From a virus: 41,348 nucleotides of DNA. The notes under the pieces are model-generated. The model was not told the DNA's origin, ran no database searches, and worked only from the letters and a program-made list of their open reading frames with translations. Made by a program: the position numbers and the translations under genes. Shown here piece after piece: positions 3,894-30,004 of the stretch (positions are counted from its first letter, which is position 1; each line of letters starts with the position of its first letter). The stretch lies in the IMG/VR virus record IMGVR_UViG_2622736425_000001; one strand, given 5' to 3'.

Positions 3894-4865
3894 GTGATAA
3901 TGATGAGGCATGAACTTTTTGAAGTTGGATCCTATGATTATTCTGACTTGGATGATAGACTTGACAAACCGGTAATATGGAGCGAAGATGATCTAAAGCT
4001 AATAGCTGAAAACTATAGGGGAGGAATTCCGTTAACTTCAGAGCATGACAATATCTACGTAGGCATCGGAAACAATATTGAATATGAGAAAGGAAAGCTA
4101 TTCATTGAAGTTCCGGACGAACTGGATATGGAATGAAAAGGATTATCTCCTAAAGTTGATGTCTTATTAAAAGATAAAGGAGATTCATTTGGAATTGATA
4201 CTATGAGCTTAATAGATGTCGGTGTAACTAAAAACCCTAGAAAAATTACCTTATTGAATTCTGAAATAACCGGAAATACTGGTGCAACAGGAAATCCAAA
4301 TCCCGCACCACAAGGACAACCTCAGCCTGCACCTAGCAAAGATGCTAATGTCGCAACCAGCTTGCTTTTAGAAAAGCTTCAAGGCAAGGATGTAGAGATT
4401 GGAAAGCTTCAGGATGAAATAAATAATCTAAAAGAAGAATCTAAAAAATATGATGAAATTAAAAAAGCTATTGAAGAAAATAAGGAATTTATAGATTCTA
4501 AAGATGATATTCTAAAAGAATTATCTGAACTGCGAAAAGCTGAAAATGAAAGGAAAATAAAAGAATACGAAGCTAAATATAACTTCAACTATAATGAAAA
4601 CGCCCAAGATAAAGAGATAATTGATAAGCTATTATCTGGTGATGTTGATATGGAATTAATGGAAAAGCTGGCTGAAAGAAGAATTAAAATTGAAGCTAGT
4701 AATGATGGTTCAACACCTGGTGGTCGCAACCCTTCAAACTCCGGTGATGTAGGTGAAACCGGTGAAACCGGCAGCACTGGAAATGAAGATGCACCATCTT
4801 TTACAACTCGTGAAGAATATAATAAGATATTGAAAGATATGGGTTTTAATCGTACCAGAATTTAG
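3894..4865 (+). pseudogene. Mu gpI-like prohead protease/scaffold, interrupted by an in-frame TGA at 4134-4136
   Basis: ORFs 3894-4136 and 4203-4865 share a frame and 4137-4202 is open (KGLSPKVDVLLKDKGDSFGIDT). Motifs LTSEH ... LSP ... DVGVTKNP resemble Mu-type proteases. These are followed by a Pro/Gln linker, coiled coil and a short C-terminal helix, as in scaffolds. Confidence 0.7.
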
Positions 4866-4995
4866 CAATGATGGTGTTTTATTGCTTTTCACCGGAGCTA
4901 AAATTTTTGATATGTAGGAAAACTCGTTATTCATTGGGGAAGTGTTAGGTGTTTTCACTTCTCCTAAAATATCGTGCATTGAAACCCTTAATGCC

Positions 4996-5250
4996 TAATT
5001 AAAGGGGGACAAGCCCCCTTTTAATTACCCACGAATGCCAATGCAAACAAAATAAAGTTTACCAAACTTAACCCCGAACCGACCGCTAAAGGGTCGGTTC
5101 TTAAATTTGACAAATTCATCTATTCCAAATCTAAAACCGGAACAGGGGAACAAGCCCCTGTTCCTCGAGCTTGACAAAGCAATTATTGTTAGGTCTATAG
5201 TATGGCCTTTCGCTTACGCTCAAGGCGTCCAGTCCTCCCTTCGGTCGGAC
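4996..5250. other. Cluster of GC-rich stem-loops (origin/pac/ncRNA-like)
   Basis: Hairpins at 4996-5027 (GGGGG-ACAAG-CCCCC core), 5076-5100 (9-bp perfect stem), 5139-5164 (10-bp perfect stem, loop AACAAG), 5205-5226 and 5227-5250. Confidence 0.8.
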
Positions 5251-5421
5251 GGAACATAATCTTTTATTAGTTGTTTAATAACATAGATGCAGGTAATTGA
5301 TATAATATAAAATAATTTATGTTGTTATAGTTTGATAAAGTCTTTTTTAAATTTCAATGCCAACTATTAACAATGAAAAATATACATATTATATGATATA
5401 AACAAGTTTAACATAAATTAG

Positions 5422-7389
5422 GTGTTTTTCGTGGTTTCAAATAATATTTTTATCTCACCAATTGAGTTTAAAGATTGGGAAAATTGGAAAAACAAAATAA
5501 ATAATTCAAATGATAATGAAGAGCTATGCCATATTGCAGAAACAGATCGTGAATGGTATATTCGTGCTTTAGCTGTTAATAAAATAAATGATGAATCAAT
5601 ATTGGCAGATATTGCAATTAATAATTCTAATTCGTATATATGTAGGTTAGCAGTTAGTAAAGTTCAAAATGATGAATTATTAAAAGAGATTGTAGATAAA
5701 TCTCCAATATATGAAGTTTGGGAGGATGCATTATCTCAGATTGATGATGAATATATATTAATGGATTTTGCAGAAAATGGAAGAGATTTCCATATTAAAT
5801 GGCATGCAATTAAAAAAATTAAAAATGAAAATTTGCTAGTTAATTTTGTTAAAAAAAGATTAAAACATACACGAAAAGATTTTATAGACAAATCCAAATC
5901 ATTTGATGAATCACGTGAATATTCATTATGTACGATTGCTGTAGAAAACATTCATGATGAGTCATTATTAAAAGAAATTGTAATAAATGATTATAATCAA
6001 GCTATGGGCATTGAAGCTCTAAAAAATATACATAATCAAGAATTTTTAATTGATGTGGCTTTAAATAATTATGATGTGCATTATAAGTTATCTGCGATAA
6101 GAAATATTACAAATGATGATGTTTTAATAGATATTGCAAAAAATCACCCTCAACGATTTGTTCGAGAAAAAGCTATAGAAAAAATATCTAATCAAGCTAT
6201 TGCAACAGATATAATCGCAAATGATCATGAAATTGAAGTAGATAAATTAGATATTCAACATATTGATGATAGTTTATTATTTAATCTTGTTAAAAAAGAT
6301 AATAATTGGCTTCGCAGGACATATTTTGTTAAAGCTATTCAAAATACAGATTATTTAAAAGAAGTAGTATGTAATGATGTGGATAGTCATGTTTGTAAAG
6401 CTGCCGTTGAAAAAATTCATGATGAGTCATTTTTAAAAGATTTAGTTAATCGTGATTTTAGTTCAGAAGCATTTGCTTGGGATGTAATACCGGCTGCTTT
6501 AAAAAATATTCATGATGATTCATTTTTAAAAGATATTGTTAACAATACTAAATACGGCCGTTATGCTTTAAAAAATATCACTGATGAATCTTTTTTAATC
6601 CAAATTGCACTAAATTGTCGTGACTCTCATTGTAGAAGTGAAGCGTTGGAAAATATCTATGATGAATCAATTTTAACTCAAATTGCTTTAACTGATCCTC
6701 AGATGCATGTTAGAAGAAAAGCAGTAAGTAAAATCTCTAATGATTTTGCATTAATTAATATTTCCATTATGGATCCTGGTTTTCAAGAATATGATAGACC
6801 ATATTGTGTAATTTATTTGGTTCGCCAAGAGGCAGAGTCCAGATTAAAAGTATTACTTGAAAATCCTGATATAAAAACTAATACTGAATATGTTGATGTT
6901 ATTCAAAGAATTAGATATGAACTTGATGAGAAAAGAAAAACATCAACTCAAAAAGGAATTATACATATACCTTATAATGAAATGAAAGATTTTACTCAAA
7001 ATAAAACAATAATAAAAGAGAAAAATAAAAAAAGAAAGATTACAAAAAACAAAAGGGATGAAAAATCTAATCTGGAAGTCGAAATTAATAAATTACTTGA
7101 AAATTATAAAAATGATGTATTAATTACTATTATATCATTTAATAATAAAAGTTTATTTAAAAAGGGTTCTATTTTTAATATTGTAAAAGAACCAGATAAT
7201 CCATATGATATGGAGGCCATTGCTGTTAAATCTGATAATATAACAATAGCATATGTTGCAAATAGTGTTCGTACTGTTGTAAAAGGTACTATGAGTGCAG
7301 GTAGAATTTATGATAAATTTGGTGAAGATTGTGAAATTGAAGTTATTTTTGTTAGAGATCAAATTATAGCAAAATTAATCTTTGATTAG
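5422..7389 (+). CDS. HEAT-like repeat protein with a C-terminal HIRAN domain
   Basis: Many ~25-aa repeats of the form A(V/L)xNIxDExxLxxIAxND. The C-terminus KEPDNPYDMEAIAV...IAYVANS is the HIRAN signature. Confidence 0.75.
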   Translation: MFFVVSNNIFISPIEFKDWENWKNKINNSNDNEELCHIAETDREWYIRALAVNKINDESILADIAINNSNSYICRLAVSKVQNDELLKEIVDKSPIYEVWEDALSQIDDEYILMDFAENGRDFHIKWHAIKKIKNENLLVNFVKKRLKHTRKDFIDKSKSFDESREYSLCTIAVENIHDESLLKEIVINDYNQAMGIEALKNIHNQEFLIDVALNNYDVHYKLSAIRNITNDDVLIDIAKNHPQRFVREKAIEKISNQAIATDIIANDHEIEVDKLDIQHIDDSLLFNLVKKDNNWLRRTYFVKAIQNTDYLKEVVCNDVDSHVCKAAVEKIHDESFLKDLVNRDFSSEAFAWDVIPAALKNIHDDSFLKDIVNNTKYGRYALKNITDESFLIQIALNCRDSHCRSEALENIYDESILTQIALTDPQMHVRRKAVSKISNDFALINISIMDPGFQEYDRPYCVIYLVRQEAESRLKVLLENPDIKTNTEYVDVIQRIRYELDEKRKTSTQKGIIHIPYNEMKDFTQNKTIIKEKNKKRKITKNKRDEKSNLEVEINKLLENYKNDVLITIISFNNKSLFKKGSIFNIVKEPDNPYDMEAIAVKSDNITIAYVANSVRTVVKGTMSAGRIYDKFGEDCEIEVIFVRDQIIAKLIFD

Positions 7390-7662
7390 TTATTTGTGCA
7401 AGGTTAAAACATCATATAATGAATAGTAATTATCCTCACATAAACTAATATTGCATTCATTAGATTTATTGAGATAACCAATATCAATTAATTTGTTGAT
7501 TAATGCATCAAATTCTAAATCATTCAATCCATAATTCCTCATTTTATTTTTTAATTTTTCAATTTTAATGCCTTTTTCATCCTGTGAATCATTAATATAA
7601 TAACTTAATTTACCTATTATCTTTATAACATAATGGTTTTGTCTAGTAAAATGGATAATCAA
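7390..7662 (-). CDS. Small winged-helix-like ORF, possibly the frameshifted tail of the upstream TPR gene
   Basis: No clear start or RBS. It overlaps the end of 7643-8659, and removing one T in CCATTTTACTAG fuses the two. Confidence 0.35.
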   Translation of the reverse strand: MIIHFTRQNHYVIKIIGKLSYYINDSQDEKGIKIEKLKNKMRNYGLNDLEFDALINKLIDIGYLNKSNECNISLCEDNYYSLYDVLTLHK

Positions 7663-8659
7663 TTTTTAATCCATTGAATCTAAAGTTAAATTCTTCATCG
7701 CATTTTTTACAATAATGTGTAGGACTAGATTCATCAACGGAACATCCACCAACAATAATATTGCCCTTTTCTTGTTCTTCAAATACTTCATCACCTACAA
7801 CGAGCCCATAAATTATCGGAGTTAATTTTCCACCACATTTTGAACAGTTTGTAGTTTCAAATTTATGTTCTATTTTTGAAATCCATTCAAGATAAAATTC
7901 ATTAATGTATGAATAGTCATCAATAGATAATTTAAGTAGCATGCGTTTAATAGCATCAACAGAGTCAGTATCGAACTCTTTATGATCAGTTTCTTCAATT
8001 TCAAATCCTTTTTTATAACACCATAAAGCAGTTTCATATTCTTCTTTTTCCTCAAATCTAAAACCTAATGCCTGATAATCTGTGGAAGTAATATCATCAG
8101 TATTTTCTAAATTTTTACAGAATTCTAATGTATCGTATATTCTGTCTGAAGTATAATATACATACCATTTGTCTTGAATAAGATCTTTGTTATTTTTATC
8201 TATACTTAATGCAATATCATAAATTTTCAAAGATTCATCATATCTATGTGAAAAACATAAGTTATGGCCTGTGAACTCTAAAAGATCCAAATCATCTGGT
8301 CTAATCTTTAATAATTTATAACAGTATATGATTGCTTCATTGCGCTTATTATTATTGCCATATAATTTTGCTTTATCAAACCATGCATCATAATTTTCTA
8401 TATTCATTGAATAAATGCATTTAAAAAATTCATCGTAATTGTCAGAGTATTTTTTCAAACAGTTTGATAGTATTTCATCATACCATTTGAAATGTGATTC
8501 ATTGGAATTATTTTTAAATTCGTTACTGGCTTTTAAAACCTTTTTATAATATTCAAAAGATTGTTTATATTTTTTTCTTTTATAAAATCTCAGAGCTTTC
8601 CTTTCCAAATAAAAAAATTCCTCTTTAATTTCCTGATTTTTGTTAATAATGTTTAACAT
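7643..8659 (-). CDS. TPR protein with a C-terminal zinc ribbon
   Basis: TPR-like helices followed by CSKCGG...PIIYG...GGC....PTHYCKKC. Confidence 0.75.
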   Translation of the reverse strand: MLNIINKNQEIKEEFFYLERKALRFYKRKKYKQSFEYYKKVLKASNEFKNNSNESHFKWYDEILSNCLKKYSDNYDEFFKCIYSMNIENYDAWFDKAKLYGNNNKRNEAIIYCYKLLKIRPDDLDLLEFTGHNLCFSHRYDESLKIYDIALSIDKNNKDLIQDKWYVYYTSDRIYDTLEFCKNLENTDDITSTDYQALGFRFEEKEEYETALWCYKKGFEIEETDHKEFDTDSVDAIKRMLLKLSIDDYSYINEFYLEWISKIEHKFETTNCSKCGGKLTPIIYGLVVGDEVFEEQEKGNIIVGGCSVDESSPTHYCKKCDEEFNFRFNGLKIDYPFY

Positions 8660-8798
8660 ATTTCACCGAACAATTGCTATGATTATATTTTTTGTTGGTA
8701 ATTTTTAATTAATTTTACTTTCAAATAAATTATAAAAAATATGTTTATTATTTTATTTATTATATAATTTATATAAAAAGGATAATAAAATATTAATC

Positions 8799-10466
8799 AT
8801 GACATTGCAGAAAAAATTACAAATCAATATTGTCATGAGCAATTACAACCAGAGGAGCAGTAGCTATTCATCCGGCCATGATTATATCTTCCTGGATAAT
8901 TTAGCCAGCAGTTCTTACTCCAATTATTTCAGAAGTGATTTGAAAAACCTGAAGATCAAAACTTCCAATGGTACTGAATGTCAGGTAGTATACATTCCAT
9001 CTTATGGATCACAAGGCGCAGCAATACTTGCAAGGGTTTCTGTTGGTCAGATTTCACAAAACACAAAGCTACTCTTGGACGTTCATGATACAGGAACAGC
9101 ATTCGCAAGCACTTTATCAACTGGTAATGAAGTTTTAATGTTTGATGCAAATAATGATACATACTCACAATTTTTCATGAACTACTCCGGTTTATCATCA
9201 AACAATGACTCAACAGATGGGGGCCAATTTTTAAGAGCTAGATTTGTTCCTAACCTCGAAGGAACTTCTCCAACTGATTTGTTTACCACATTTGCTTCAG
9301 GCCAACCATTAGCCAACAATCGTGTTGTTGTAGCCAGATTCAAATATATTAACGGTAATGTTTTTGTTAATGATAATGCAACATATCACGGTTCAACCAT
9401 TGGAGGCATCATGATGCAAATTGATGGAACTCTCTCACCTGATGAGTCTAATGTAAAGGCTACTGTCAACTATTGGGGTGGGGAAAAAGATTATTGCATG
9501 TTCACTGGTGCTAAGACTTTAGTATTGGCCAGTTCATTTGATGCTTACAATCAGGGAAGTGATGAAGAGGGAAACTGGAAACAATATCATTTTCATAATC
9601 GTGTTGGAACAGGAACATCGAATACATCAGATTATATTGAAGGGTTCAGCAGAAATAATCCAACTAAAATTTATCTTGGGTGTTTTAAAATGATTATTGA
9701 TTATGATGTAAATTCAACAATCGGACATGGCCGTGGATATCCAACAGGCCTTGAACATACAGAGAAAATGGATGTAATAGCTTGTCTTTTAGATGAGGGC
9801 GAAAGAACATATGTTAATGATGAACATACTGCTTGGATTTGTTCCAATCAATGTGCAGTCGGCGATATGGTAACTTTAGATATGTCTTCAACAATGGAAC
9901 ATACAATTGTTAGAAAAGCTCAAGCAGGAGAATTGGCTTTCGGTTATCTTTTAGGTAAAGTCCAGGTTAAGACTTCAGGATTAACATTAGTTGCTGTGGC
10001 CGTGTTAGGTGATGTCTTTAGATTAAAACTCAAAAGGCCAGTGGCTGAAGACATATTGCCGAATACAAGAATCTATATTGACAGTGCCGGTGAATGCAAT
10101 CCGGTTGAAGGCCATGACTTAAGGCTGTTGTCAATCGTTAATCTTCAAAATAATGAGGATACTGATTACATTAGAGTTTATCGTCAGATGTCTGAGGTTG
10201 AAATGTATCGGGAATCTCAGAACTGTATTGATCTTGGAGATTGCAGTTTTGAACAGGATGAGATAACTCACGTTGTTAATATGATCGTGCCTTCAGAGTC
10301 AAACATCATGGCCCAGGCAAATTATGTAAAGGATGCAGACGGTGTCACCTATTGTGAGCTTCCTGATGTAGCTATTGTCAATAACGTCCGTTTCGTATGG
10401 GAAGACAACAAACTCTACATGGAATGGGAAGGATGTGATGATGGCCAAAATGTATATTTTATATAA
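8799..10466 (+). CDS. Putative virion spike/head-fibre protein containing an internal decoration-protein domain
   Basis: Residues encoded at about 9762-10187 align by eye with the 17429-17923 product (LLDEG, VxDxVTL, VLGxxFRLKL, NxRIxxxSxG, YIxVxR). The N-terminus is weakly DUF2341-like. The C-terminus has short beta repeats (FVWEDNKLY). Confidence 0.65.
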   Translation: MTLQKKLQINIVMSNYNQRSSSYSSGHDYIFLDNLASSSYSNYFRSDLKNLKIKTSNGTECQVVYIPSYGSQGAAILARVSVGQISQNTKLLLDVHDTGTAFASTLSTGNEVLMFDANNDTYSQFFMNYSGLSSNNDSTDGGQFLRARFVPNLEGTSPTDLFTTFASGQPLANNRVVVARFKYINGNVFVNDNATYHGSTIGGIMMQIDGTLSPDESNVKATVNYWGGEKDYCMFTGAKTLVLASSFDAYNQGSDEEGNWKQYHFHNRVGTGTSNTSDYIEGFSRNNPTKIYLGCFKMIIDYDVNSTIGHGRGYPTGLEHTEKMDVIACLLDEGERTYVNDEHTAWICSNQCAVGDMVTLDMSSTMEHTIVRKAQAGELAFGYLLGKVQVKTSGLTLVAVAVLGDVFRLKLKRPVAEDILPNTRIYIDSAGECNPVEGHDLRLLSIVNLQNNEDTDYIRVYRQMSEVEMYRESQNCIDLGDCSFEQDEITHVVNMIVPSESNIMAQANYVKDADGVTYCELPDVAIVNNVRFVWEDNKLYMEWEGCDDGQNVYFI

Positions 10467-10532
10467 AATAAATAATAAATAATATAATAAAATATATAAT
10501 AAAAAATATAATATCATAATGAGGTTTATAAC

Positions 10533-10724
10533 ATGACCATAAGGAAACTGGTAGGAACTCTAGAAAACAAAGGCCCGTACATTGACCAATCAACAGGCCA
10601 CTGGTTTTACTGGAACGGCACTAGATATGTTGATAGTGGCTATCCTTACGCTGTAAAACTCATTATTGAATTTAAAATCGAAAATGGAATATTATATTAC
10701 TCAATTACTTGGGAGGCACAATGA
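10533..10724 (+). CDS. Small fibre-associated viral protein
   Basis: PYIxxxTGHWFxWNGxxYVDxG motif resembles short repeats in phage fibres. RBS GAGGT upstream. Confidence 0.5.
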   Translation: MTIRKLVGTLENKGPYIDQSTGHWFYWNGTRYVDSGYPYAVKLIIEFKIENGILYYSITWEAQ

Positions 10725-10870
10725 AATACATAAAATACTTTGAAACAATCGAAGAGTACGAATCCTGGATGAAAGTAGAAGAAAATGCTGAAGAGGTATA
10801 TCAAAGTGAAGAGAAGATTCTTGTTGATGGAGTAATCATCAGCCACACATACAAAGAGGAGGAAATTTAA
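10721..10870 (+). CDS. 49-aa acidic viral protein (MKYIKYFETIEEYESW...), absent from the ORF track
   Basis: ATGA overlap with the upstream stop, GGAGG RBS, and its stop abuts the next ATG at 10871. Confidence 0.7.
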   Translation: MKYIKYFETIEEYESWMKVEENAEEVYQSEEKILVDGVIISHTYKEEEI

Positions 10871-11122
10871 ATGATTTACGAATTCCTGGAAGCAAACAGA
10901 AAGGACATTGACATTTTAACTTCATTTCTTGTTACAGCTATTCCAATTGTCATGCTCTATTCAGAAGCATTAGGAATTACTGAAAATACAATTCCTTACT
11001 GCATTCTCATGATAATCTTAGGAATAGCCAGTCATTACGCAAGCAGGATAAGAGGCGAAGGAGATGTTGAAGACGCCAAACAAAAAGCTAAAAGAGTATT
11101 GGGATTCCCTGAAGAAAAATAA
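10871..11122 (+). CDS. Holin-like small membrane protein
   Basis: Two hydrophobic segments and a charged C-terminus, in a viral operon. Confidence 0.5.
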   Translation: MIYEFLEANRKDIDILTSFLVTAIPIVMLYSEALGITENTIPYCILMIILGIASHYASRIRGEGDVEDAKQKAKRVLGFPEEK

Positions 11123-11146
11123 GATTCTTTGGAGGATATTGTTATC

Positions 11147-11416
11147 ATGAACAAAATAAAAAAGAAGATATTCATATGCAACTTTACCAAAACAATTTCA
11201 AGTGCCGTTTTAACAGCTGTAGCCATCAACATCATAATGACCAATGCAACAAAGTATGCTTTAATTGAAGGATTATTGCCGTTTACATTAGCTATTGTTA
11301 TTGTTGGCCTAATCGATTTGTATGAGTATAGATGTGAGCGTGAAGACAAGATTAATTTGGATGAACTGGAAGAGCGAATAGAAAAACTGGAAGGTAATGT
11401 GGATGGAGAAAGGTAA
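11147..11416 (+). CDS. Small two-TM membrane protein with a coiled-coil tail (holin-like)
   Basis: Two TM stretches followed by LDELEERIEKLE. GGAGG upstream of ATG 11147. Confidence 0.45.
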   Translation: MNKIKKKIFICNFTKTISSAVLTAVAINIIMTNATKYALIEGLLPFTLAIVIVGLIDLYEYRCEREDKINLDELEERIEKLEGNVDGER

Positions 11417-11737
11417 GATTCTAATTGCAGTTCCGACATTTGAAAATATAAAACCGCAATGCTTCAAAAGCATCTATGGGCTGACAAATCCTAAGGATTT
11501 TAATCTTTATTTCGATTATGTGAAAGGTTATGATTGTGCACGTGCAAGAAACGAAATAGCAAAACTTGCAATCAAACATGACTTTGACTATGTGCTGATG
11601 GTAGATTCAGATGTTAGTGTTCAAAAGGATGCTCTTGTTAAGCTATTGGAATGTGAAACCGACATTGCTTTAGGATGGTATTTCAAGAAGAGAACAAGAA
11701 CAGATGAGTCTGTTATCTTTGATTTTGGAAAAGACTA
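11403..11737 (+). pseudogene. GT-A (family 2-like) glycosyltransferase, 3'-truncated by IS630
   Basis: ILIAVPT...ARNEIAK...DYVLMVDSD (DxD motif). The frame runs into the IS end at 11738. Confidence 0.75.
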
Positions 11738-13108: not shown

Positions 13109-13550
13109 TAATGGGAAATATGATGAGGCAATTAAATTACAAAAAGAGTTAATTAATTTTCAAAGATTGTTTAAAACAACATATGTATCTAATTTTGGTG
13201 AAATCAACCATATATTGAATTACTGTTATGAAGAATTAGAATGGGGAGAGTTAATCAAATTATCAAATGAGTTATTGGATATTGAAAAAAATCATCAAAA
13301 TAATCGGAGAAGTGATAATATACAATATTCAGTAATATTAATTGCAATAGTTACTCTTTGTTCCCAATTATTGATTTATTATTCCAATTTTAAAGATGTA
13401 ATACTTTTCATTGGAGGAATTGCTTTTTTATTTTTCTTAAGCTTAATTTTCAAAGAAAAAATTTATTATGTCTGGCAAATATTAAAGTTAGTGCCTAAAT
13501 TTATTTACAATTTAATAGTTTTATTATTAAAAAGAATAAAAGATTTATAA
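13107..13550 (+). pseudogene. 3' remnant of a two-TM membrane protein, 5'-truncated at the IS end
   Basis: Frame is open from the IS boundary (YNGKYDEAIKLQKEL...) with no own promoter or RBS. It has a helical region followed by two TM segments. Confidence 0.55.
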
Positions 13551-13551
13551 T

Positions 13552-14565: not shown

Positions 14566-14571
14566 AATATA

Positions 14572-15150: not shown

Positions 15151-15178
15151 ATTAACTATTTTTCAACCTATAATTTCC

Positions 15179-18873: not shown

Positions 18874-18885
18874 GGAGGATTGTTA

Positions 18886-19812: not shown

Positions 19813-19835
19813 AACCATATTTTATCTCCTAAAAT

Positions 19836-19864
19836 ATTAGTGAAGTTTCAATAGCTTCACTAAT
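19836..19864. terminator. Hairpin after the capsid operon
   Basis: ATTAGTGAAG-9 nt-CTTCACTAAT perfect 10-bp stem. Confidence 0.5.
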
Positions 19865-19922
19865 TTCTTCTGCTCCGTTTTTATATGCAATAATCGCCAT
19901 ATTATATACTGGAGGCTATAAA

Positions 19923-20626: not shown

Positions 20627-22303
20627 ATGAAGTTCATAAATATTGATGTAGGTGGAGATGATTTTATGTTGGGTATAAAAGAATTTTTAAAGCCTTCAGT
20701 TTTAGGATACTATAAACGTTGTGAAGTTACTCAAATTTCTTTTTACAAAGATAATCATGAAGAGGAATCTAATTTATTAACTTTATTTATTTTTGATGAA
20801 GAAAATTTTCAAGGTAGGAATGAAATTTTTTTGACTGGCAAGAAGAATAAAATAAATTCTAAGTATAAATTATGTATTAAAAGATTTTATTTATCTATTG
20901 AAGAAAGTATTGAACTTTTCAATTGTTTAAATCAGGGTGTTTCAAAAACAAGTTCATTAAAGAAATATATTTTTAATGATAATCCTTTAAAATTATTGCC
21001 TCAGCAATTCATCACAACAAATGAAGACATTAGATTTAATAAGATACTTAAAAATAATTTCCATAGTGGTTCTTATATATTTGAGTTTTTTGATGAAGAA
21101 AAAGATTTTGAATTATTATTTGGTTTAAATAAATCGGGAAGGTTAAAAAAGATTTCAAAGATGATTGGGGAAGTTGTTCCAATTGATTTGTTGTCTTGTA
21201 CTGATTGTTTGGGAAATTATATTTTTCAATTACCAATAACTATTTTAAATGTTCACACAAATAAGAATAAGAATATACTTGGTATTGATTTTTATTGGCA
21301 TAATAATTTAATTAATGAAGTTAAACCTAATTGTTTGATTAATATATATTCAAAAGTTGATAATAATTATCTATTTGATATTTTTGAGGAATATAATAAA
21401 GAAAATCATCAAAAAATTAACATATTGCCTTCTGGAAAAAATTATGTTTTAAAAATATGGAATAATGATTTAAAAATATTGCTATATGAAATGAATAGTA
21501 AATATTTTGAAAAATTCAGAGTTTCATTGAGTATGAGTGAGTGTGAAAGAAAATTTATTGAGGATAATGGAGAATCTGAAGTAACTATCATGTCAAACCC
21601 TAAATTAAGTGATGATATTAGTTATTTAAATTATAGAAATGATGCAATGTATAAAAAGAATTTAAAAGAACTGGAAGATAATCTTAAATTTAACACATAT
21701 ATGCAAAATGAGAACGCATTAGAAGATATAAAAACATTAATTAATGAATATGGTAAAAATGGTGTGAATATAATTGATCCTTATTTGGAACCGAATGATT
21801 TAATAAGAACAGTAGTCCATTTGAAATTCTATGATGCGCCAATAAAAGCAATTACTTCTTTAAAAAATTCATTTAATGAATTATTGATAATGAAAGAAAT
21901 GTTAGAGCAACTTCCAAATCAAAATATAGTTCAAAATTTTAAAAATGTTTTAAATGAAAAAATAGAAAAAGAAAAAAAATCTAATCTTGAATGTATTGAA
22001 GATTATAAAAAGGAGTTGGATGAGAAAATTATTAATTCATGTGGATTAAATTTAGTATTTAGGGCTCAATTTGATAGATATGGTCAACCATTTCATGATA
22101 GATTTTTAATTTTTCCTGGAGATGATGAAAAATTACTTGAACCCATAGTATTTTCATTAGGAACTTCATTAAATGCTTTTGGTAAACATTTCCATATATT
22201 GCAAGAGGTTTCACATCCGCAACATGTGGCTGATGTTTTTGATAAGTTATGGGGGATATTAGAACAAAAAGAGGAGTGTCTGATTTGGAATTCAAAGGAA
22301 TAA
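20627..22303 (+). CDS. VPA1262-like protein with a C-terminal PLD-like nuclease domain
   Basis: C-terminal IIDPY...FHDRFLIF...SLGTSLN matches the HDR/GxSxN PLD-variant pattern. The family name comes from recall only. Confidence 0.5.
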   Translation: MKFINIDVGGDDFMLGIKEFLKPSVLGYYKRCEVTQISFYKDNHEEESNLLTLFIFDEENFQGRNEIFLTGKKNKINSKYKLCIKRFYLSIEESIELFNCLNQGVSKTSSLKKYIFNDNPLKLLPQQFITTNEDIRFNKILKNNFHSGSYIFEFFDEEKDFELLFGLNKSGRLKKISKMIGEVVPIDLLSCTDCLGNYIFQLPITILNVHTNKNKNILGIDFYWHNNLINEVKPNCLINIYSKVDNNYLFDIFEEYNKENHQKINILPSGKNYVLKIWNNDLKILLYEMNSKYFEKFRVSLSMSECERKFIEDNGESEVTIMSNPKLSDDISYLNYRNDAMYKKNLKELEDNLKFNTYMQNENALEDIKTLINEYGKNGVNIIDPYLEPNDLIRTVVHLKFYDAPIKAITSLKNSFNELLIMKEMLEQLPNQNIVQNFKNVLNEKIEKEKKSNLECIEDYKKELDEKIINSCGLNLVFRAQFDRYGQPFHDRFLIFPGDDEKLLEPIVFSLGTSLNAFGKHFHILQEVSHPQHVADVFDKLWGILEQKEECLIWNSKE

Positions 22304-23769
22304 TTGATAATTTTGATGAATTTAATATGATTTTGGTTAATGAAGAATTAATATTATTATTTGAAAGTTTGCATGACTTTTCCTTTGATGAATTAATGTA
22401 TTTTGAAGACCCATTACATTATGAAAATATTGGTGTTCAAAAAATCATGTCTCAAATTGATGAGATTATATCTGTTTTATTTTATAATATTGATATTAAA
22501 ACAACTGATGATGTCATAAGTATTGTAAAAAGTGATATTTTATTATTTAAAAGAGCTATGGATCAAATTGATTTGAAATATTTTATTTTTTTCTCGTATC
22601 TAAATTCTTATTTGAATGTTGATGTTGATTATTTGATAAATCATTTTAACTATGAACTAAATATGATTAAGATGGAAGAAAAAATTAATGAGTTATTTAA
22701 TCAAATTCAAGTTTTTCCTAAACCTAATGATAATAACTTATCACCACTTTTAAAAAATGTTTTATTTAAGTCCTTGAAAAAAGATGACATTATGCATTCA
22801 TCATTAAAGTTATTAAATATTAGTAAAGATCCATTCATTTTTTATAATTTTAAAATTTATTGTCCAAAATTATTAACTAGTATGCTGATACTTATTAAAA
22901 AAATAAATTATGATTTCTTTTTAAGAAATATGTTTGATGTAAATAATTTAATCATGGCAGTACTTTTTTGTAAAGAATTAGATATATCTGAAATATTAGA
23001 GTGTTATTATGAAAACGATATTTCTAATATTGATTTATTATTCACATTTTTGAAAAAAAGTATAGATTCTAATGAATTAATAGATGATAATATTGTGTTT
23101 ATTAAGGATATTCTACTTGATATTTTGGAGTTAAATGAAAATTTATTTAGAAAAATTATCAGATTATTCAAACATAAAAAGTTATTTAATAGATCAATTG
23201 GTTTATTATTGTCTGGAATTAATAAATGGGAAGTTGAATTAATTGTTAATGAATTTGACTTAAATTTTGGAGCAAATAATCATCTAATTAATCTTAGGGA
23301 AAATATTTTAATAAACCTCGATAAAAAATCGGATAATTTTAAATTAGTTTTAAAATTAGTTTATAAAAATTGGGATTTGAATTTAAATTCTTTGATTGAT
23401 GATGATGAGAATGGATGGGATTTATTATGCAGTGATTTTAATTCATTTATTTTAGAATATTATAATCAATTTTATGATGATGATATGTTGGTTGAAGAAA
23501 TGAAATTGAATTTTAATTTTCTTGAAAAAATTAATTCAACATGGTCATCTAATTTTACAAATTATAAAAATAGGATACATGTTTATTATACGAAATTATA
23601 TTTGTTAAGTTCAATTTATAAAAAAAGGAATATTAATAATATAGAGATATTGGGATGCTATGAGAATTTCTTTAAAAATAAGTATTTAATTGAAGTTTTG
23701 TTAAGAGATAAAGCGAAAAAATCGATTATTGATTTTAAAAAAGATTATAATATGATGAAAATTCAGTAA
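22249..23769 (+). CDS. Large alpha-helical hypothetical protein, overlapping the PLD-like gene
   Basis: 506-aa ORF overlapping the previous stop. Very AT-rich. Confidence 0.7.
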   Translation: MGDIRTKRGVSDLEFKGIIDNFDEFNMILVNEELILLFESLHDFSFDELMYFEDPLHYENIGVQKIMSQIDEIISVLFYNIDIKTTDDVISIVKSDILLFKRAMDQIDLKYFIFFSYLNSYLNVDVDYLINHFNYELNMIKMEEKINELFNQIQVFPKPNDNNLSPLLKNVLFKSLKKDDIMHSSLKLLNISKDPFIFYNFKIYCPKLLTSMLILIKKINYDFFLRNMFDVNNLIMAVLFCKELDISEILECYYENDISNIDLLFTFLKKSIDSNELIDDNIVFIKDILLDILELNENLFRKIIRLFKHKKLFNRSIGLLLSGINKWEVELIVNEFDLNFGANNHLINLRENILINLDKKSDNFKLVLKLVYKNWDLNLNSLIDDDENGWDLLCSDFNSFILEYYNQFYDDDMLVEEMKLNFNFLEKINSTWSSNFTNYKNRIHVYYTKLYLLSSIYKKRNINNIEILGCYENFFKNKYLIEVLLRDKAKKSIIDFKKDYNMMKIQ

Positions 23770-23794
23770 TTAATATTTTTTAAGGGAGTATATT

Positions 23795-25282
23795 ATGTTT
23801 AAAGAGGGCATTAATACAATTATAATTGAAAGTTATGATGAACTGGCATGTATTATAAAAGGAAAACATGAAAAGAATAAAATGGACCTTCGTGAAGATT
23901 TTATATTTTGGGGATTATCAAACATCGAATATGAATTAATTCCTTCTGCTTTAAGAAGAAATAAGTTAAATCAACTTGAAATTAATGAATTAATTGAATC
24001 TGATCACATATTTAAAGTTTCAATTGATGAAAATGATGCCAAAATGTTTAATTTAGAATATTCTGAATCAATAAATGATGGTGAAGTTATAATTGGAGTA
24101 GATAAATATGGGAATCTGATTCATGATGTGAAATCTGATTATAAAGTTTTAGAATGTGATTTGCAAAGAGAAAGAGAAAATTATCTTCTATTAAAATTTT
24201 TTAATTGTGCAGATAAATCTGGTTTGAAAGTTAAATCAGAAGGATTTTTAAGAGAGTTGATTCATAATTATTCTTCAAAACGATTAGAAGAGTATTGGTT
24301 GGATTTTGATATTTTAGAAACTATATCCTTGGCTCAACATTATGGTTTGCCGACTAAAGCTCTAGATTGGTCTTATGATTATAAAGTTTCATTATATTTT
24401 GCTGTAAAAGATGTAATTGAATCTAATTTGTCTTCTGATGGAGTATTGTGGGCCTTAAATTATAAATTAATTGAAAACCATAATTTTAATGAGGAATATT
24501 ATGTTAATTTACATATTCATAGGCCGGAATATAATACAAATCCTAATTTAAATGCTCAAAAAGGATTATTTACTTTTTTAGAAAGATATGTTGGAGATTA
24601 TGACAAACCATTAAACAAAATAATTTCTGATGAATTAAATAAAACTCTTGACCAAATGCCGTGGGATAATCTTTATGAATCTAAAATTAGGACAATTCCG
24701 GATGATATATCTAAAAATGATACGATTTTCTATAAATTTATTATTCCTAAAGAAATTAAACAAAATATTTTAAATGAATTATATTTGGAGGGTTATTCTG
24801 AAGAATATTTATTTCCCGGATATAAAGGAGTTTGTGAATCAGTAATTAATAGAGTAAAGTTAAATGAGATATTAAAAAATAATGATGAACATATTAAAAA
24901 GAGCATATTATTGTCCGTGGACTGGAATTTAAATGAAATTATAAATAAAAATCAACTTTATGTATTTGTAAACTTGGATTTTAAAGAAGAAATTGATAAA
25001 ATCTTTATTTACCATAATAATGATGTTGTAGGTTATTTTAGAGGAAATGAAATAATTAAAGATTCACTAAATGTGTTATGGGAACAGTTTGGGGAACATT
25101 CAGGTTTATCTGAAGATAAATTTGATGAGTGTTTTAAAGGTAATGATGAATCATTTGCAATTAGAATTAATGATTTAAATATTTTTAAGCATTCAATTAA
25201 ATTGTGTGACTTTGAATTGGAGAATGATTTTTGTTTTGTTGAGGATAATGAAGATTTAAAATTTTTATTGAATTTTAATTAA
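23795..25282 (+). CDS. FRG-domain protein with a C-terminal ASCH/PUA-like domain
   Basis: LAQHYGLPTKALDWS...LYFA and N..AQKGLF are FRG motifs, but the signature reads FWG. The C-terminal VVGYF....I....LW......SG....F...F.G....FAI.I is an ASCH-like pattern. Confidence 0.78.
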   Translation: MFKEGINTIIIESYDELACIIKGKHEKNKMDLREDFIFWGLSNIEYELIPSALRRNKLNQLEINELIESDHIFKVSIDENDAKMFNLEYSESINDGEVIIGVDKYGNLIHDVKSDYKVLECDLQRERENYLLLKFFNCADKSGLKVKSEGFLRELIHNYSSKRLEEYWLDFDILETISLAQHYGLPTKALDWSYDYKVSLYFAVKDVIESNLSSDGVLWALNYKLIENHNFNEEYYVNLHIHRPEYNTNPNLNAQKGLFTFLERYVGDYDKPLNKIISDELNKTLDQMPWDNLYESKIRTIPDDISKNDTIFYKFIIPKEIKQNILNELYLEGYSEEYLFPGYKGVCESVINRVKLNEILKNNDEHIKKSILLSVDWNLNEIINKNQLYVFVNLDFKEEIDKIFIYHNNDVVGYFRGNEIIKDSLNVLWEQFGEHSGLSEDKFDECFKGNDESFAIRINDLNIFKHSIKLCDFELENDFCFVEDNEDLKFLLNFN

Positions 25283-25366
25283 AAAACAATTTAAATTTTT
25301 CTCAGAACTTTTGGGTTGCAATTTTATTACAAAAATATAATAGTTATTATATATAAATAATATAAT

Positions 25367-26185
25367 ATGTCAGATAATAAAAATAATAATATTAGTTGGA
25401 CAAGTTTTTGCCAAGCTATGAATTCCATAGCATACTGGCTACTCCAAAATAAAAAGAAGTATAAGAAACGTGACCATTACCAAATATTAACGTTAAAAGG
25501 TAGTTGTAGCGATATAGAAAAGAAAGCGAAGAAATTAGGAAACGATAAACTAGTATCAATGTATACAATGGCTTTAATCAAAGATAATACATCTTTAGAT
25601 TTCCTTCCAAACTATGTAACATTAAAGAACGGAGAACAAATTGATAAAGCCGAATATGTAGATATGGCCATAAGGACAGAAGCATATATCAGAGCAAATA
25701 AAAGACTTCCGGCTATTGTATATAGAATGTCAACACTTCCAGATTACAAAGATTCCACAATGAAGCTATTTATCAATGTATTCAACTTCAAAGGAAATAC
25801 AATCGATGAAGCATTAGCTATTATATCAAAGATGAAATTATATAGTAAATACTTCGATTCACAAAAAACAGACAAGAAAACAATCAATGATGCTAGTCTG
25901 GGTAAAGGTTCAAATTGTGTAGACTGGGGACAAGTATATTATCGTATAGCGAAATCATTAGGATATGATGTACAATTTGTCCATGTCAAATGCCGTGTAA
26001 GTGGAACTGGCCATATAAAATTAAGATTAAAACATAAAAAACATACTGGAGGAAACTGGATTAACCGTGATCCTGCTGCAGTTGCGGATACCACTTCAGG
26101 AAATGTTAAATCAATCTGGTGTGAAGATGGTTACCTCATAGCATATGATCCTTCCTGGATATTCACAGATTTATATAGCAGTTAA
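25367..26185 (+). CDS. pei: Pseudomurein endoisopeptidase (PeiW/PeiP-like endolysin)
   Basis: PMBR-like LPNYVT...EYVDMA.R...YI..N.RLP..V, plus the transglutaminase-like triad NCVD / GH / DPAA. Confidence 0.85.
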   Translation: MSDNKNNNISWTSFCQAMNSIAYWLLQNKKKYKKRDHYQILTLKGSCSDIEKKAKKLGNDKLVSMYTMALIKDNTSLDFLPNYVTLKNGEQIDKAEYVDMAIRTEAYIRANKRLPAIVYRMSTLPDYKDSTMKLFINVFNFKGNTIDEALAIISKMKLYSKYFDSQKTDKKTINDASLGKGSNCVDWGQVYYRIAKSLGYDVQFVHVKCRVSGTGHIKLRLKHKKHTGGNWINRDPAAVADTTSGNVKSIWCEDGYLIAYDPSWIFTDLYSS

Positions 26186-26238
26186 CGTTAATGTTAACTC
26201 TTTTTCTTTTTTAATAGTCATGTATGATTTTATAACAA

Positions 26239-27027
26239 TTACAAATCTTCTTTTTTATTGTAAACTTTTGATAGGTATTGTCGATATTGACTTACTTTTG
26301 CCGCATTTATTGGTTTATAAATTTCAATAGCTTGTTCACAAACTCGTTGGGCATCATCATATTTCTCTGAATCAAAGTATATTTTAAACAGTTTAGAATA
26401 GGAATTATTACTAATTGTCCTTTCATTTAGATTTATTTCATATAATTTAATAGCTTCATCTTGTTTTCCTTGTTTTAATAAGTCATCCGCTTCTTTATCA
26501 CGTTGTTTATGTTCTTCATTTGCAGAAGGCAATCTTTGAGATTTTGTTTCCTTTTTAATTTTTTTTGCTTTTTCTAAATCTCGTTTAAGACTATTAACAT
26601 GAGATTTATTAGGTATCTTCCTACAGTTTTTAATTCCATGCTTCAATACTCTGATACTATTGTCAATTTCATTTCTATCTTGATATATTGAGGATAGATG
26701 GTAATATGTGAATGGTGTGTCCGTATGAATAAGAATATTTGATTCTAAAACTTCAATTGCTTCATCAATTTTTCCTTCTTTTTCTAATTCTTCAGCTTTT
26801 TCGTTATTTTTATAATAAATATTACTATATTTCATCATTTTTGCGTCTTCCAATCTTCTTTCTAATTCCAATGGGACGATGCCATATTTTTGATTGTATT
26901 TGTCCATATCTCTTTTAACAACTTTAATAGCATTGTCATAATCATTATTAAAAAAATAATTGAAATATTCTGTAGAGTCAGGAATCTCTTTTCTTATTCG
27001 TTTTCTATAATCTTCAAATGCTCCCAT
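26239..27027 (-). CDS. TPR protein
   Basis: Two TPR blocks (A.EL.K.GK.DEAI..YE.N). Confidence 0.75.
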   Translation of the reverse strand: MGAFEDYRKRIRKEIPDSTEYFNYFFNNDYDNAIKVVKRDMDKYNQKYGIVPLELERRLEDAKMMKYSNIYYKNNEKAEELEKEGKIDEAIEVLESNILIHTDTPFTYYHLSSIYQDRNEIDNSIRVLKHGIKNCRKIPNKSHVNSLKRDLEKAKKIKKETKSQRLPSANEEHKQRDKEADDLLKQGKQDEAIKLYEINLNERTISNNSYSKLFKIYFDSEKYDDAQRVCEQAIEIYKPINAAKVSQYRQYLSKVYNKKEDL

Positions 27028-27200
27028 ACTATCACTTAAAATATCATTTATAGCAACTAATTAATAGTTATTTTTATTTTAACTATTCAAATAAATTCAG
27101 TTTATCATCAATATCATGTTGGAAACATAGCACAGGATAATTTTATATAATTAAAATAATAAAATATTATATTAATTATTATATACAGGTTGTAATAGCT

Positions 27201-27398
27201 ATGGCCAATATAAATAATACATCATCCTACATGGATGAAGACAAAAAGCAAATTATCAAAGAGTCCAACTATACCTTTAGAGATGCTCTTGAAGTTTCAT
27301 CTTATCTCATTGAAGTAGGCAAGTTCGAAAGATTCTATAAAGAAATGCAAATCCACGATCTTCAAAAGGAACTTGACGAAATGGATGACGGAGAATAA
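27201..27398 (+). CDS. Small putative DNA-binding (RHH-like) protein
   Basis: DEDKKQIIKESNYTFRDALEV aligns with the next gene. Confidence 0.5.
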   Translation: MANINNTSSYMDEDKKQIIKESNYTFRDALEVSSYLIEVGKFERFYKEMQIHDLQKELDEMDDGE

Positions 27399-27533
27399 CT
27401 TCAAAAAATATATCTCTCGTATATAACTCTTAAAAGAAAACTATTTTTCATAAGCAAAAGTAATATTTATTATTACTTTTATATTTTTTTTATAATAAAA
27501 TATTATATATAAAACATAATAAATATATGTATT

Positions 27534-27782
27534 ATGTTACTTGAAAAAACCAACATCAGCGCAAGAGTGGATATTACACTCAAAAAGATTGTCGAAGATT
27601 CAACCTTCACCCACAAGGACGCATATGAACTGGGAGCAAAACTGATAGCTATGGGAAATGCTGAAGAGACAATTGTACTAATAAACACCAATCCTGATTT
27701 TGAAAGAATCATGAAACAAACTGAATACAGTTTAATCGAAGCAAGGAAACTGGAACTTGAAAGAGAGTTAAGAGTTTTATAG
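27534..27782 (+). CDS. Small putative DNA-binding (RHH-like) protein with a coiled coil
   Basis: ISARVDITLKKIVEDSTFTHKDAYELG has the strand-helix-helix pattern. Confidence 0.55.
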   Translation: MLLEKTNISARVDITLKKIVEDSTFTHKDAYELGAKLIAMGNAEETIVLINTNPDFERIMKQTEYSLIEARKLELERELRVL

Positions 27783-27792
27783 GAGGGAACCT

Positions 27793-28605
27793 ATGGGTCG
27801 AGGAAATTCAGATATCATATATTTTTTAGAACAGCATGAACAGGAAATAATAAACTGCTGCAAGAAGGGAATGAGCAACAATGAAGTCATTGAACTATTA
27901 AAAACAAAATATGGTCGTGATGTAGCAGATATTACTTATAGAAAATTCAAGGCGGGTTTAAATCTAACAAAGAGTGATTTCCTGGAAACATTGTTGGATG
28001 AGATAATGGTCATGAAGACATCTGGTGCAACAGATGCAAATGTCAGGCGATGGCTGGAAGAGGAACATGAAATCGAAGTGAGCAGATCCACATTCTCAAG
28101 ATTCAAAAAGAAATATCACATAACAGATAAAGAAAAAGACCCAAGGGCAAGAGATAAAGATTCATTAACAAATAGGGCAATCACTCAAGGCCAAATTATA
28201 GACAATGAAGTTCACACAGACAATATCGACTTAGCTATTGATACAATACTTCAGCAACAGGTTACTGATATCAAAACGGGTCTTGACAATCTTGACAAGA
28301 TTACCAAAAATGCTGTGGGTATTGAAATTGACTTTGCAAAGCTCGACCAGGAAGTAAGATACAATGCCAACGAAAAAAGTCTGGCAAGATACCTGATTGA
28401 TTTAACAGAATTAAAAATAAGATACTTGGAATTATCAGTTAAAGCATTTGAAGCTAAAAACAGGCTGTTCAAGGATGAAATGGATAGGCTATTTAAAAAT
28501 AGAGTTCTTGAACTGGAAGACAAAAAGATTGAAATCTCACAAAAAGACATCATGAATGAAATAGAAATCCTTGCAAAACAAATTGATGATAACAATGTAC
28601 AATGA
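27793..28605 (+). CDS. Terminase small subunit candidate (tandem HTH + coiled coil)
   Basis: Overlaps the TerL start. Two similar HTH-like units (aa ~10-58 and ~63-110). Confidence 0.6.
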   Translation: MGRGNSDIIYFLEQHEQEIINCCKKGMSNNEVIELLKTKYGRDVADITYRKFKAGLNLTKSDFLETLLDEIMVMKTSGATDANVRRWLEEEHEIEVSRSTFSRFKKKYHITDKEKDPRARDKDSLTNRAITQGQIIDNEVHTDNIDLAIDTILQQQVTDIKTGLDNLDKITKNAVGIEIDFAKLDQEVRYNANEKSLARYLIDLTELKIRYLELSVKAFEAKNRLFKDEMDRLFKNRVLELEDKKIEISQKDIMNEIEILAKQIDDNNVQ

Positions 28606-30004
28606 GAACAACGAATTCTATTTGGATGCTAGGGATAAAGTTATTCTTCAGAAATGTGTGTATGAGAATCCATATATTCCATTCTCTCCATTTCCAAAGC
28701 AGGCCGAAATGATTTTAGCTAGAGAAAAGGAAGTCCTGATTGGTGGTGCTGCAGGAGATTCCAAATCAACAAGTCTTTTGATGAGGGCATTGTTCTATGT
28801 TCAGGATGACATGAATGAATACCATGCCCTCATCCTGAGACGTACATTATCTGACTTGAAGCGTAAAGGAGCTTTAATTCACAAGGCAAGTCAATGGTTA
28901 AATCGAAAGGAAATTCAAAATAATGCAAGTATCAAACCGAAGTGGGATGGAACCGAACACTCATGGACATTTCCCAATGGAAATTCATTAACTTTCGGAT
29001 ATTTACGTAACATTAATGACCTTGATACATATCAGGGTTCCGAATACCAGTTCATAGGAATTGATGAGCTGACACAGTTGGAGAGGTTTAAATATATCTA
29101 TATGAGGTCAAGAGTTCGTAAGACCAAAGACAATAAGCTTCCAACACAACTGATGGCATCAAGCAATCCGGGTAAGCGTGGAAACAAATGGGTGCGTGAA
29201 AGATTCATAGAAAAAATAGACACTGACATTCAGGATAAATCACAAATAAGATTCATTTCATCCAGCTACTTGGACAACATCTATCTAGACAGAAACGACT
29301 ATGAAGAATATCTTATGGGATTAGATAGAGTAACAAGAGAGCAATTAATGAACGGTAACTGGTATGCCTCAGTCAAAGGCCAGTTATTTGATGAATCAGA
29401 CTTCCACATAATCTCTCAAGATGAATGCCTGAAAATACCAATCGTTAGAGTCATCAGATACTGGGATCTTGCAACTACAGAAGTATTGAACGATGACAAA
29501 TTGAGAGGAAGTGATCCGGATTATACTGCTGGTGTTTTATTAGCTAAAGATCTAAACGGTAATATCTACATTTGGGATTCATATGAATTTCAGCTTGAGT
29601 CAAGAAACTTGATCAATGAAATACTGAACACTGCAGCACGTGACAAGTCAGATGTACAGTATATTGAACTCGATGGAAGCACAGGTAAAAACTTCGGATT
29701 ATTAATCATAGATGAGCTTAACAGAAGAGGATTCACTACAGGTACTGGTAACTCAAGAGAAAATAAAGTTGACCGTGCAAGAAGAGTTTCAGCAGATATT
29801 CAGAAGAACGGAATATTTCTGGTTGGGAAGGATAGAACAGGGTTTACGAAAAAATGGGCCATGGAATTTCTGGAAAAAATTACTGCTTATCCAAATGAAG
29901 CCATTCATGATGACTGTGTGGTGGCATTTACTGGAGGATATGAAAAAATAGTTGCAGAAAAACAATCACAAAGAGTTAATGTGGATAAATGGTATTCCAC
30001 ATGA
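28595..30004 (+). CDS. terL: Terminase large subunit (PBSX/Terminase_6-like)
   Basis: Walker A-like GGAAGDSKS, Walker B IGIDE, coupling motif ASSNPG, and nuclease WDLA...DYTAG...HDD. Confidence 0.9.
   Translation: MYNENNEFYLDARDKVILQKCVYENPYIPFSPFPKQAEMILAREKEVLIGGAAGDSKSTSLLMRALFYVQDDMNEYHALILRRTLSDLKRKGALIHKASQWLNRKEIQNNASIKPKWDGTEHSWTFPNGNSLTFGYLRNINDLDTYQGSEYQFIGIDELTQLERFKYIYMRSRVRKTKDNKLPTQLMASSNPGKRGNKWVRERFIEKIDTDIQDKSQIRFISSSYLDNIYLDRNDYEEYLMGLDRVTREQLMNGNWYASVKGQLFDESDFHIISQDECLKIPIVRVIRYWDLATTEVLNDDKLRGSDPDYTAGVLLAKDLNGNIYIWDSYEFQLESRNLINEILNTAARDKSDVQYIELDGSTGKNFGLLIIDELNRRGFTTGTGNSRENKVDRARRVSADIQKNGIFLVGKDRTGFTKKWAMEFLEKITAYPNEAIHDDCVVAFTGGYEKIVAEKQSQRVNVDKWYST

Follow-up and report, generated by a model that had tools for sequence, protein, structure and literature searches.

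A widespread Methanobrevibacter element with modular late genes and swappable cargo, probably derived from tailed viruses

The element and the closest described systems

The stretch of DNA analyzed here (the window; 41,348 nucleotides, IMG/VR virus record IMGVR_UViG_2622736425_000001) corresponds to positions 33365-74712 of contig C2 in G000, a 6-contig assembly, and lies within an integrated element. We consider it probable that this is a defective copy of a widespread Methanobrevibacter element, which derives from tailed viruses and combines modular late genes with swappable cargo. The closest described relative is vir323 (Caudoviricetes sp., BK063679.1 / NC_133304.1), a third-party annotation (TPA) genome from a goat faecal enrichment, with Methanobacteriales as host and unclassified in the NCBI taxonomy. 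It belongs to the same family (first major capsid protein (MCP1), 95%; TerL, 92%; portal, 94%), of which it is the sole member in the phage collection, and 13 kb of the window element aligns to it at ~73-83%. Like the elements described below, it has the same module order and two annotated MCPs, with no tail tube or tape measure annotated. Unlike the window copy, it is intact, circular (34,179 bp) and without an integrase, and carries a short-repeat array, ribbon-helix-helix (RHH) and coiled-coil genes, and different cargo. We take the source compendium of this record to be Medvedeva et al. 2023. A literature search, which did not cover that compendium, found neither the missing tail nor the slot architecture nor the prevalence described, and the family looks largely undescribed. 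In M. millerae SM9, a 49-kb prophage with integrase, terminase, restriction-modification (RM) and endoisopeptidase genes has been described (PMC4987999). The element in genome G154 resembles it, with 47.6-49.1 kb between attachment (att)-like repeats and the same listed genes; the passage of that source on the prophage mentions neither capsid genes nor a missing tail or a slot structure (PMC4987999).

The hotspots of P2-like prophages and P4 satellites hold fast-swapped defence cargo at fixed positions between core genes (PMC9122126, PMC13586616), as do the present elements. Those systems are bacterial, have few hotspots and own or borrow a complete tailed virion, whereas in the elements the late region itself is interrupted by as many as six slots, one of them specialised for RM. 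Phage-inducible chromosomal islands of the capsid-forming kind (cf-PICIs) encode their own HK97 head, portal and terminase and have no tail module (10.1101/2025.02.11.637232). Like them, the elements encode capsid, portal, protease and terminase themselves and have no tail module. However, cf-PICIs are 10-18 kb in size, encode an adaptor and a connector and have no lysis genes (10.1101/2025.02.11.637232), whereas the elements are 34-58 kb, carry a lysin and fibres, and have no detected adaptor. Formal membership was rejected on size, adaptor and lysin. Usuviridae (MSTV1; PMC11375127) are, like the elements, temperate Methanobrevibacter viruses whose lysin is of the PeiW type and whose defence region varies, but they are tailed, with one conserved structural and one hypervariable region (PMC11375127). 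No usuvirus came up when the phage collection was searched with MCP and portal, and membership in Usuviridae was rejected because no structural module homologous to theirs, with its tail tube and tape measure, was found. Among the hallmarks of Caudoviricetes (Duplodnaviria), the HK97-fold MCP, the portal and TerL are present in the elements, and no long-tail genes (adaptor, tail tube, tape measure) were found by homology to those of tailed kin. The element acts as a temperate virus with hotspots of the P2/P4 type would, and its lack of a tail recalls a cf-PICI.

Module order, cargo slots and promoters

The comparison set contained 26 elements, some partial, made up of the window's copy and 25 relatives, which were taken from 17 genomes and one IMG/VR contig. 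The relatives include two closed isolate chromosomes and two complete circles, and most others are contigs of metagenome-assembled genomes (MAGs). Since the IMG/VR contig is identical to vir323 across the compared 16 kb, it is not independent evidence. A single circular order on one strand fits all 26 elements: a block of a 65-amino acid (aa) gene, an 82-aa gene, TerS and TerL, followed by the portal, the protease/scaffold, a fibre block, a capsid block and the pseudomurein endoisopeptidase (Pei) lysin. The fibre block consists of a 397-aa DUF2341-like gene, a 258-aa decoration paralogue, small genes, a glycosyltransferase-like gene and a collagen/receptor part (decoration-collagen fusion, receptor-like genes, a collagen gene and a winged helix-turn-helix (wHTH) gene), and the capsid block of decoration, MCP1, MCP2 and Rha-like genes. 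The arrangement corresponds to the canonical order with an opening between TerL and portal and with the fibre block placed before the capsid block. At this opening, integrated members carry the integrase and replication module, which is found in both orientations; in three contigs, 2.5-4.2 kb separate TerL from the portal. Within modules, 2 insertions of >400 bp were found in ~200 intra-module gaps. The original prediction had called the late genes scrambled, in place of which we find an order fixed across the family. Its proposal of a modular architecture with exchangeable slots is supported by the conserved order and the variable cargo in the same slots of all 26 elements.

A one-off rearrangement or a chimeric assembly could also place late genes in an unusual order, and G000 is in several contigs. 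The same split order is shared by the 25 relatives, including closed genomes and two circles, and a contiguous operon was found in the closest tailed kin. An assembly chimera is further unlikely because the window sequence contains zero Ns, because the same architecture is present in the single-contig genomes G119 and G154, and because the Pei/TPR/regulator junction of the window recurs at 95% over 1.5 kb in another, independent genome. The comparative data thus rule out a one-off relic or chimera, and we assign this explanation next to no probability.

In the window, DNA homology to the relatives ends at the borders of five islands (3835-5277, 8745-11736, 17340-20339, 25325-26213 and 27136-30004). 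These are the five plus-strand islands that had been predicted, and the open reading frame (ORF) map and GC profile confirmed them. The portal gene, however, forms a sixth island just left of the window. It encodes 436 aa at window positions -1425 to -115 (G000:C2 31939-33249; -1468 to -115 with its promoter) and ends 115 bp before the window start. The predicted GC contrast holds in direction (31-37% in the islands vs 22-27% in the slots), but the spot counts of 40% and 18% overstated it, with MCP1 at 36.3%.

Slot sizes range from 53 bp to 24 kb across the elements. The 295 cargo ORFs, in both orientations, fall into 229 families, of which 189 are singletons, and have a GC content of 29.5% compared to 36.9% for the core genes. 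By Pfam and PADLOC, the cargo includes type I, II and III RM, GmrSD, Eco57I-like, HNH, HEC-06, FRG and DUF4365 proteins; TPR proteins, adhesins and flavodoxins are also present. A DNA-methyltransferase motif, counted by regex as a rough measure, was found in the pre-capsid slot S3 of 19 of 22 elements, and at most once in each other slot. The label "defence-like" is therefore strong for the pre-capsid slot and partial elsewhere. Within the window copy, the label as first applied suits part of the cargo, the rest being TPR/HEAT-repeat proteins or unassigned. Likewise, every slot is filled in the window copy, as had been noted, but not in the family, where 15 of 19 elements have nothing but a 57-bp promoter in the portal/protease slot and the element L117 is nearly without cargo. 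A nested ~15-kb block, which brings along an integrase and three genes for large adhesin-like proteins, occupies different slots in three elements (L044-L045, slot S2 of G251:C140; L054-L055, slot S4 of G220:C8; L061-L062, slot S4 of G234), and is possibly a separate mobile element that uses the slots.

The portal-protease spacer of 57 bp is itself the promoter, and so this slot could be filled in the window copy. The promoter motif is specific to the elements, comprises a TATA box and phased A/T units, and is predicted to drive transcription. In the window's element it heads the portal, protease, 63-aa and decoration genes, with copies at 3847-3893 (plus strand), -1468, 10459 and 17379; more relaxed matches lie at 8769, 27143 and 27503. 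The strict motif, a regex built from the same element sequences in which it was counted, gave 4 matches at module starts in the window's element and 0 in 1.83 Mb outside it. Across the elements, 77 of 80 matches lie directly 5' of the portal, protease, 63-aa gene, decoration or Pei, and none was found in five tailed kin. Separate promoters would let foreign genes of either orientation sit between modules without polar effects.

Comparison of the window with G220:C37 revealed 77-86% identity over most of Pei, then 97-100% across the TPR cargo up to the next promoter, and 84% beyond it. A 97-100% cassette between 77-86% flanks indicates recombinational swapping, and this signature was seen in one clear case and one partial case. 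Each window module has a different nearest relative. Distance matrices correlated within a module (MCP1-MCP2, rho 0.87) and showed almost no correlation between modules (MCP1-TerS, rho 0.02); the TerL row (5 sequences) was left out of use. The swap pattern and the decoupled modules, as read from the sequences, fit homologous recombination in the conserved flanks. Such recombination between elements sharing a cell would swap cassettes as at P2/P4 hotspots.

Head genes and the search for a tail

The predicted identities of TerL, the lysin, MCP2 and the protease/scaffold were upheld. TerL (477 aa) lies on the plus strand at 27201-30004 together with the 65-aa and 82-aa putative regulators and a 270-aa gene at the TerS position, and matches phrog_979 (E 4e-80). 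The Pei lysin (25367-26185, plus strand) contains the Pfam domains PMBR and Peptidase_C71. The capsid block (17429-20339, plus strand) encodes decoration (164 aa), MCP1 (312 aa) and MCP2 (310 aa), followed by a terminator and the Rha-like regulator (138 aa, weak match). MCP2 is 57% identical to MCP1, matches Phage_capsid_4, and its model (pLDDT 85) has the HK97 fold, with HK97 as best Foldseek match (E 5e-13). The prohead protease-scaffold gene (3894-4865, plus strand, 323 codons) is homologous to the gene at the same position in tailed kin, and is annotated as prohead protease in vir323. The portal was assigned from its atlas neighbours, which are portal families (0.96-0.97), and from homology to annotated portals; it has no direct PDB or PHROG match.

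A profile search found distant MCPs, and their contigs and five Methanobacteriaceae proviruses have a contiguous late operon, consisting of TerL, portal, minor head, protease, decoration, one MCP, an adaptor-position gene, tail tube, chaperones and tape measure. The portal, protease, decoration and MCP of these kin match the elements. Tailed Methanobacteriales viruses (such as vir249, BK063678.1, and the proviruses in G006, G012, G175, G261, L097 and L100) share with the elements a homologous portal (22-28%) and the protease-scaffold (25-37% identity), L097, L099 and L100 also have homologous decoration and MCP genes (up to 37%), and G006 shares Pei and a replicase. Unlike the elements, the tailed kin have the contiguous operon (annotated in vir249), a single MCP, minor head, adaptor, tail tube, chaperones and tape measure, and no shared promoter motif.

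The minor-head, neck and tail genes of the kin had no match in the 26 elements or in G000. This lack of neck and tail-tube genes throughout the family, its most unusual feature, had escaped the original prediction. By sequence search, which could miss a remote analogue, their 270-aa adaptor-position gene and a 150-aa gene had no homologue in the elements. No podovirus-type short tail (adaptor, nozzle, ejection proteins) was recognized, with several core proteins unassigned. The absence of a tail does not stem from fragmentary assembly, since two complete circles (G270:C25 and vir323) are also without tail genes. The element portals form one clade on a long stem, in trees (a quick portal tree and a FastTree MCP tree) that carry long-branch warnings and were used for monophyly only. 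A short contig, L095, with decoration, a single MCP, the 258-aa paralogue and no adaptor adjoining, branches before the MCP duplication. What the lineage keeps is TerL, portal, protease-scaffold, an HK97 capsid with duplicated MCP, receptor-like genes and Pei. It has three decoration paralogues, one of them fused to a collagen fibre: a complete decoration domain, sharing ~50% identity with the 164-aa decoration protein, forms the start of the first collagen gene, and head-anchored fibres are therefore likely.

In intact members, terminase would fill a decorated head with DNA, attachment would be through fibres on the head, with no long tail, and Pei would lyse the host. In its fullest form, this would be an abundant family with HK97 capsid, portal and terminase but without neck or tail, with a two-MCP head and decoration-anchored collagen fibres, which infects methanogens with pseudomurein walls, switches between provirus and plasmid and is a major shuttle of RM among gut methanogens; we put this forward tentatively, as a minority possibility. 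Within the overall reading of a modular element derived from tailed viruses, tailless entry has somewhat less than an even chance, a cryptic short tail is doubtful, borrowed tails are unlikely, and the lack of any infective particle is improbable.

Borrowed tails would make the elements cf-PICI-like satellites, which fill their own heads and take the tails of unrelated tailed methanogen viruses. All members have head, portal and terminase without a tail module, cf-PICIs provide a precedent (10.1101/2025.02.11.637232), and the spread across species is very wide at 86-100% MCP identity. However, cf-PICIs need their own adaptor and connector to dock tails (10.1101/2025.02.11.637232), and the adaptor-position genes of the kin are unmatched in the elements, which are 34-58 kb long with their own lysin and fibres. 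In addition, the tail-tube family of the kin, one tail family among others, occurs in only 2 of the 37 MCP-positive genomes. We judge a satellite of this kind unlikely.

The 397-aa, 258-aa, receptor-like (348-375 aa) and collagen proteins, whose genes are present in every intact member, might instead build a cryptic short tail or portal-vertex appendage. The element would then be an ordinary temperate, podovirus-like virus with many moron slots, a reading that we find rather doubtful. The collagen genes match PHROG tail-fibre families and are so annotated in vir323, but the decoration domain that starts the first of them points to the head. Moreover, the core proteins do not exceed the 477 aa of TerL in size, and nothing among them is recognisable as an adaptor, a nozzle or a large ejection protein.

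Several points also count against our overall reading of an element derived from tailed viruses. The tail absence rests on sequence searches, and none of the 397-aa, 258-aa and receptor-like proteins has a known fold; the model of the 258-aa decoration paralogue is of low confidence (pLDDT 42.5). The collagen genes are annotated as tail proteins in vir323. Much of the cargo (TPR proteins, adhesins, flavodoxins) is not recognisably defensive, the methyltransferase count comes from a motif regex, and the promoter regex was derived from the same sequences. Most relatives are MAG contigs, some partial, and the elements are known from sequence alone.

The window copy, lifestyle and spread of the family

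The integrated copy is 48.3 kb long and bounded by a 9-bp repeat. It ends at the start of a NOG1-like GTPase gene (left att near -6867) and at the 3' end of an AMMECR1-like gene (right att ~90 bp past the window end), and these two host genes are adjacent in G119, which thus shows the empty site. This copy is defective. Its protease gene is broken by an in-frame TGA at 4134-4136. The Walker-A glycine of its TerL is replaced by aspartate, in comparison to 15 of 15 relatives, the TerL ORFs being intact in all 16 elements checked. The 555-aa ORF at 8799-10466 (plus strand), which had been taken for one spike gene, is a fusion in which a ~300-bp deletion joins the 397-aa DUF2341-like gene to the 258-aa decoration-domain paralogue; the two are separate genes in relatives. 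The plus-strand region 10533-11753 contains the 63-aa gene, a 53-aa gene, two small hydrophobic proteins (83 and 95 aa, putatively holin-like) and a glycosyltransferase-like gene truncated to 118 of 199 aa. The end of the latter and the whole collagen-fibre/receptor cluster are gone, at an IS630-like insertion. On the minus strand, the replication/early module (35255-39404) contains the replicase, 671 aa in G119b, in three pieces, and is followed by a tyrosine integrase (40233-41348). The capsid genes stay intact. The window copy is probably unable to form particles by itself and survives as a cargo island. G000 also carries relics of further copies (C1:~645,100-645,800, C1:~549,500-551,400, C3:~177,800-179,200 and C4:~109,700-111,400), with scaffold and hairpins, TerL/TerS fragments, integrase and the 65-aa gene, and a replicase homologue.

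At least five lesions in the window copy, other broken copies (G147, G273, L118/L119) and the relics in G000 could be taken to mean that the element is a domesticated relic or a host-serving shell (gene transfer agent-like or encapsulin-like), inherited vertically in a defence island. The MCP fold also matches encapsulins. Domestication in a defence island, as first suggested, fits the lesions of the window copy but not the family. Core genes are under purifying selection (ratio of nonsynonymous to synonymous substitution rates, dN/dS, 0.03-0.18, with dS mostly 1-1.4). The elements occupy various loci and are flanked by differing att-like repeats (of 20 bp in G220:C8 and G234 and of 16 bp in G270:C62), a relative has the empty site, and carrier genomes often hold 2-3 copies. 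Integrase-less circles exist, and integrase, replicase, TerL and lysin are intact in most members. We consider domestication of the family very unlikely. A gene transfer agent was rejected, as the locus is not fixed or vertical and an integrase or replicase is present. The L118/L119 remnant, present in several metagenome assemblies, is without fibre cluster and terminase and keeps decoration, both MCPs, Pei and RM cargo; capsid genes are possibly retained in decayed copies of this type.

The slots of the window copy contain varied cargo. Slot S1 (1-3830, plus strand), between portal and protease, encodes a 632-aa protein of no assigned family and two TPR proteins, and slot S2 (5278-8740) a 655-aa repeat protein (HEAT-like by eye), a 90-aa ORF and a TPR protein. 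Slot S3 (11765-17215) contains IS630-like transposase pieces (by eye), a 127/337/192-aa block common to G251, an AbrB-like gene, and a C5 methyltransferase with a restriction-endonuclease-like gene common to G154. Slot S4 (20627-25282, plus strand) has an FRG-domain protein (PADLOC PDC-S15/M11B) and a pair of 558-aa and 506-aa proteins (20627-23769) with no family match. A distant homologous pair (26-30%) is found in slot S3 of G154, and the pair is a candidate two-gene defence system. The recently swapped cassette of slot S5 (26239-27027, minus strand) is a TPR-like gene, and slot S6 (30114-34980) contains DUF4365 and DUF4145 proteins and other unassigned ORFs. At the left end of the element, a 1171-aa NTPase-like protein (P-loop by eye; L002:12945-16460, window -6420 to -2905) had no match in Pfam and PADLOC searches and is a candidate antiviral protein. 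RM and other cargo may benefit the host and so keep the element common.

A conserved GC-rich hairpin array (4870-5260) follows the scaffold gene. At least one core hairpin is present at this place in 18 of 19 elements, with varying copy number. The array is 99.4% paired, with 4 pairs showing compensatory changes, and has no Rfam match. It is a candidate cis site for packaging (pac) or replication (ori), or a candidate structured RNA.

Intact members would replicate as integrated proviruses or as integrase-less, plasmid-like circles. Element sizes range from 34 to 58 kb, and Pei is present in all complete members. G270:C25 is a complete circle of 36,781 bp with a 141-bp terminal repeat and no integrase, and belongs to an integrase-less subtype with G296:C162, G220:C4, G214:C21 and vir323. 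This subtype has 23-36 copies of a short GGAC-core repeat in the 700 bp after TerL, an iteron-like arrangement, and RHH-like genes with a 370-386-aa coiled-coil gene in slot S4; no replicase was recognized in it. The plasmid collection gave no MCP match. In the integrated members, the integrase/early module bears one of three unrelated replicases, and has one orientation in G119a, G154, G220:C8 and G234 and the other in G000, G119b, G189, G247, G251 and G270:C62. L117 has a 564-aa gene at the replicase position with a weak match to PF27228 (MTBMA_p00010). ORFs of ~510 aa that resemble group II intron reverse transcriptases by eye (L078-L079 in G111, L067-L068 in G247) are inserted in Pei and the 82-aa gene, as well as ahead of the wHTH gene.

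Of 102 species-level genomes from the window's genus, 53 have the portal, and MCP1 was found in 37 of 301 family genomes, with full-length copies 86-100% identical. For M. smithii, 214 contigs are listed with one and the same MCP variant. The portal and MCP counts place this family among the commonest mobile elements of rumen and gut methanogens. Candidate archaeal defence genes can be located by position in its slots, the 189 singleton families among them, and methanogen viruses and their lysins are of interest for methane mitigation. Prokaryotic viruses with terminase and portal are taken to need a tail. M. millerae SM9, a cultured carrier with apparently intact core genes if it corresponds to G154, makes the question directly testable. 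If tail-borrowing is true, it would extend cf-PICI-like biology to archaea, and if the family is tailless, it would revise the assumed need of terminase-portal viruses for a tail.

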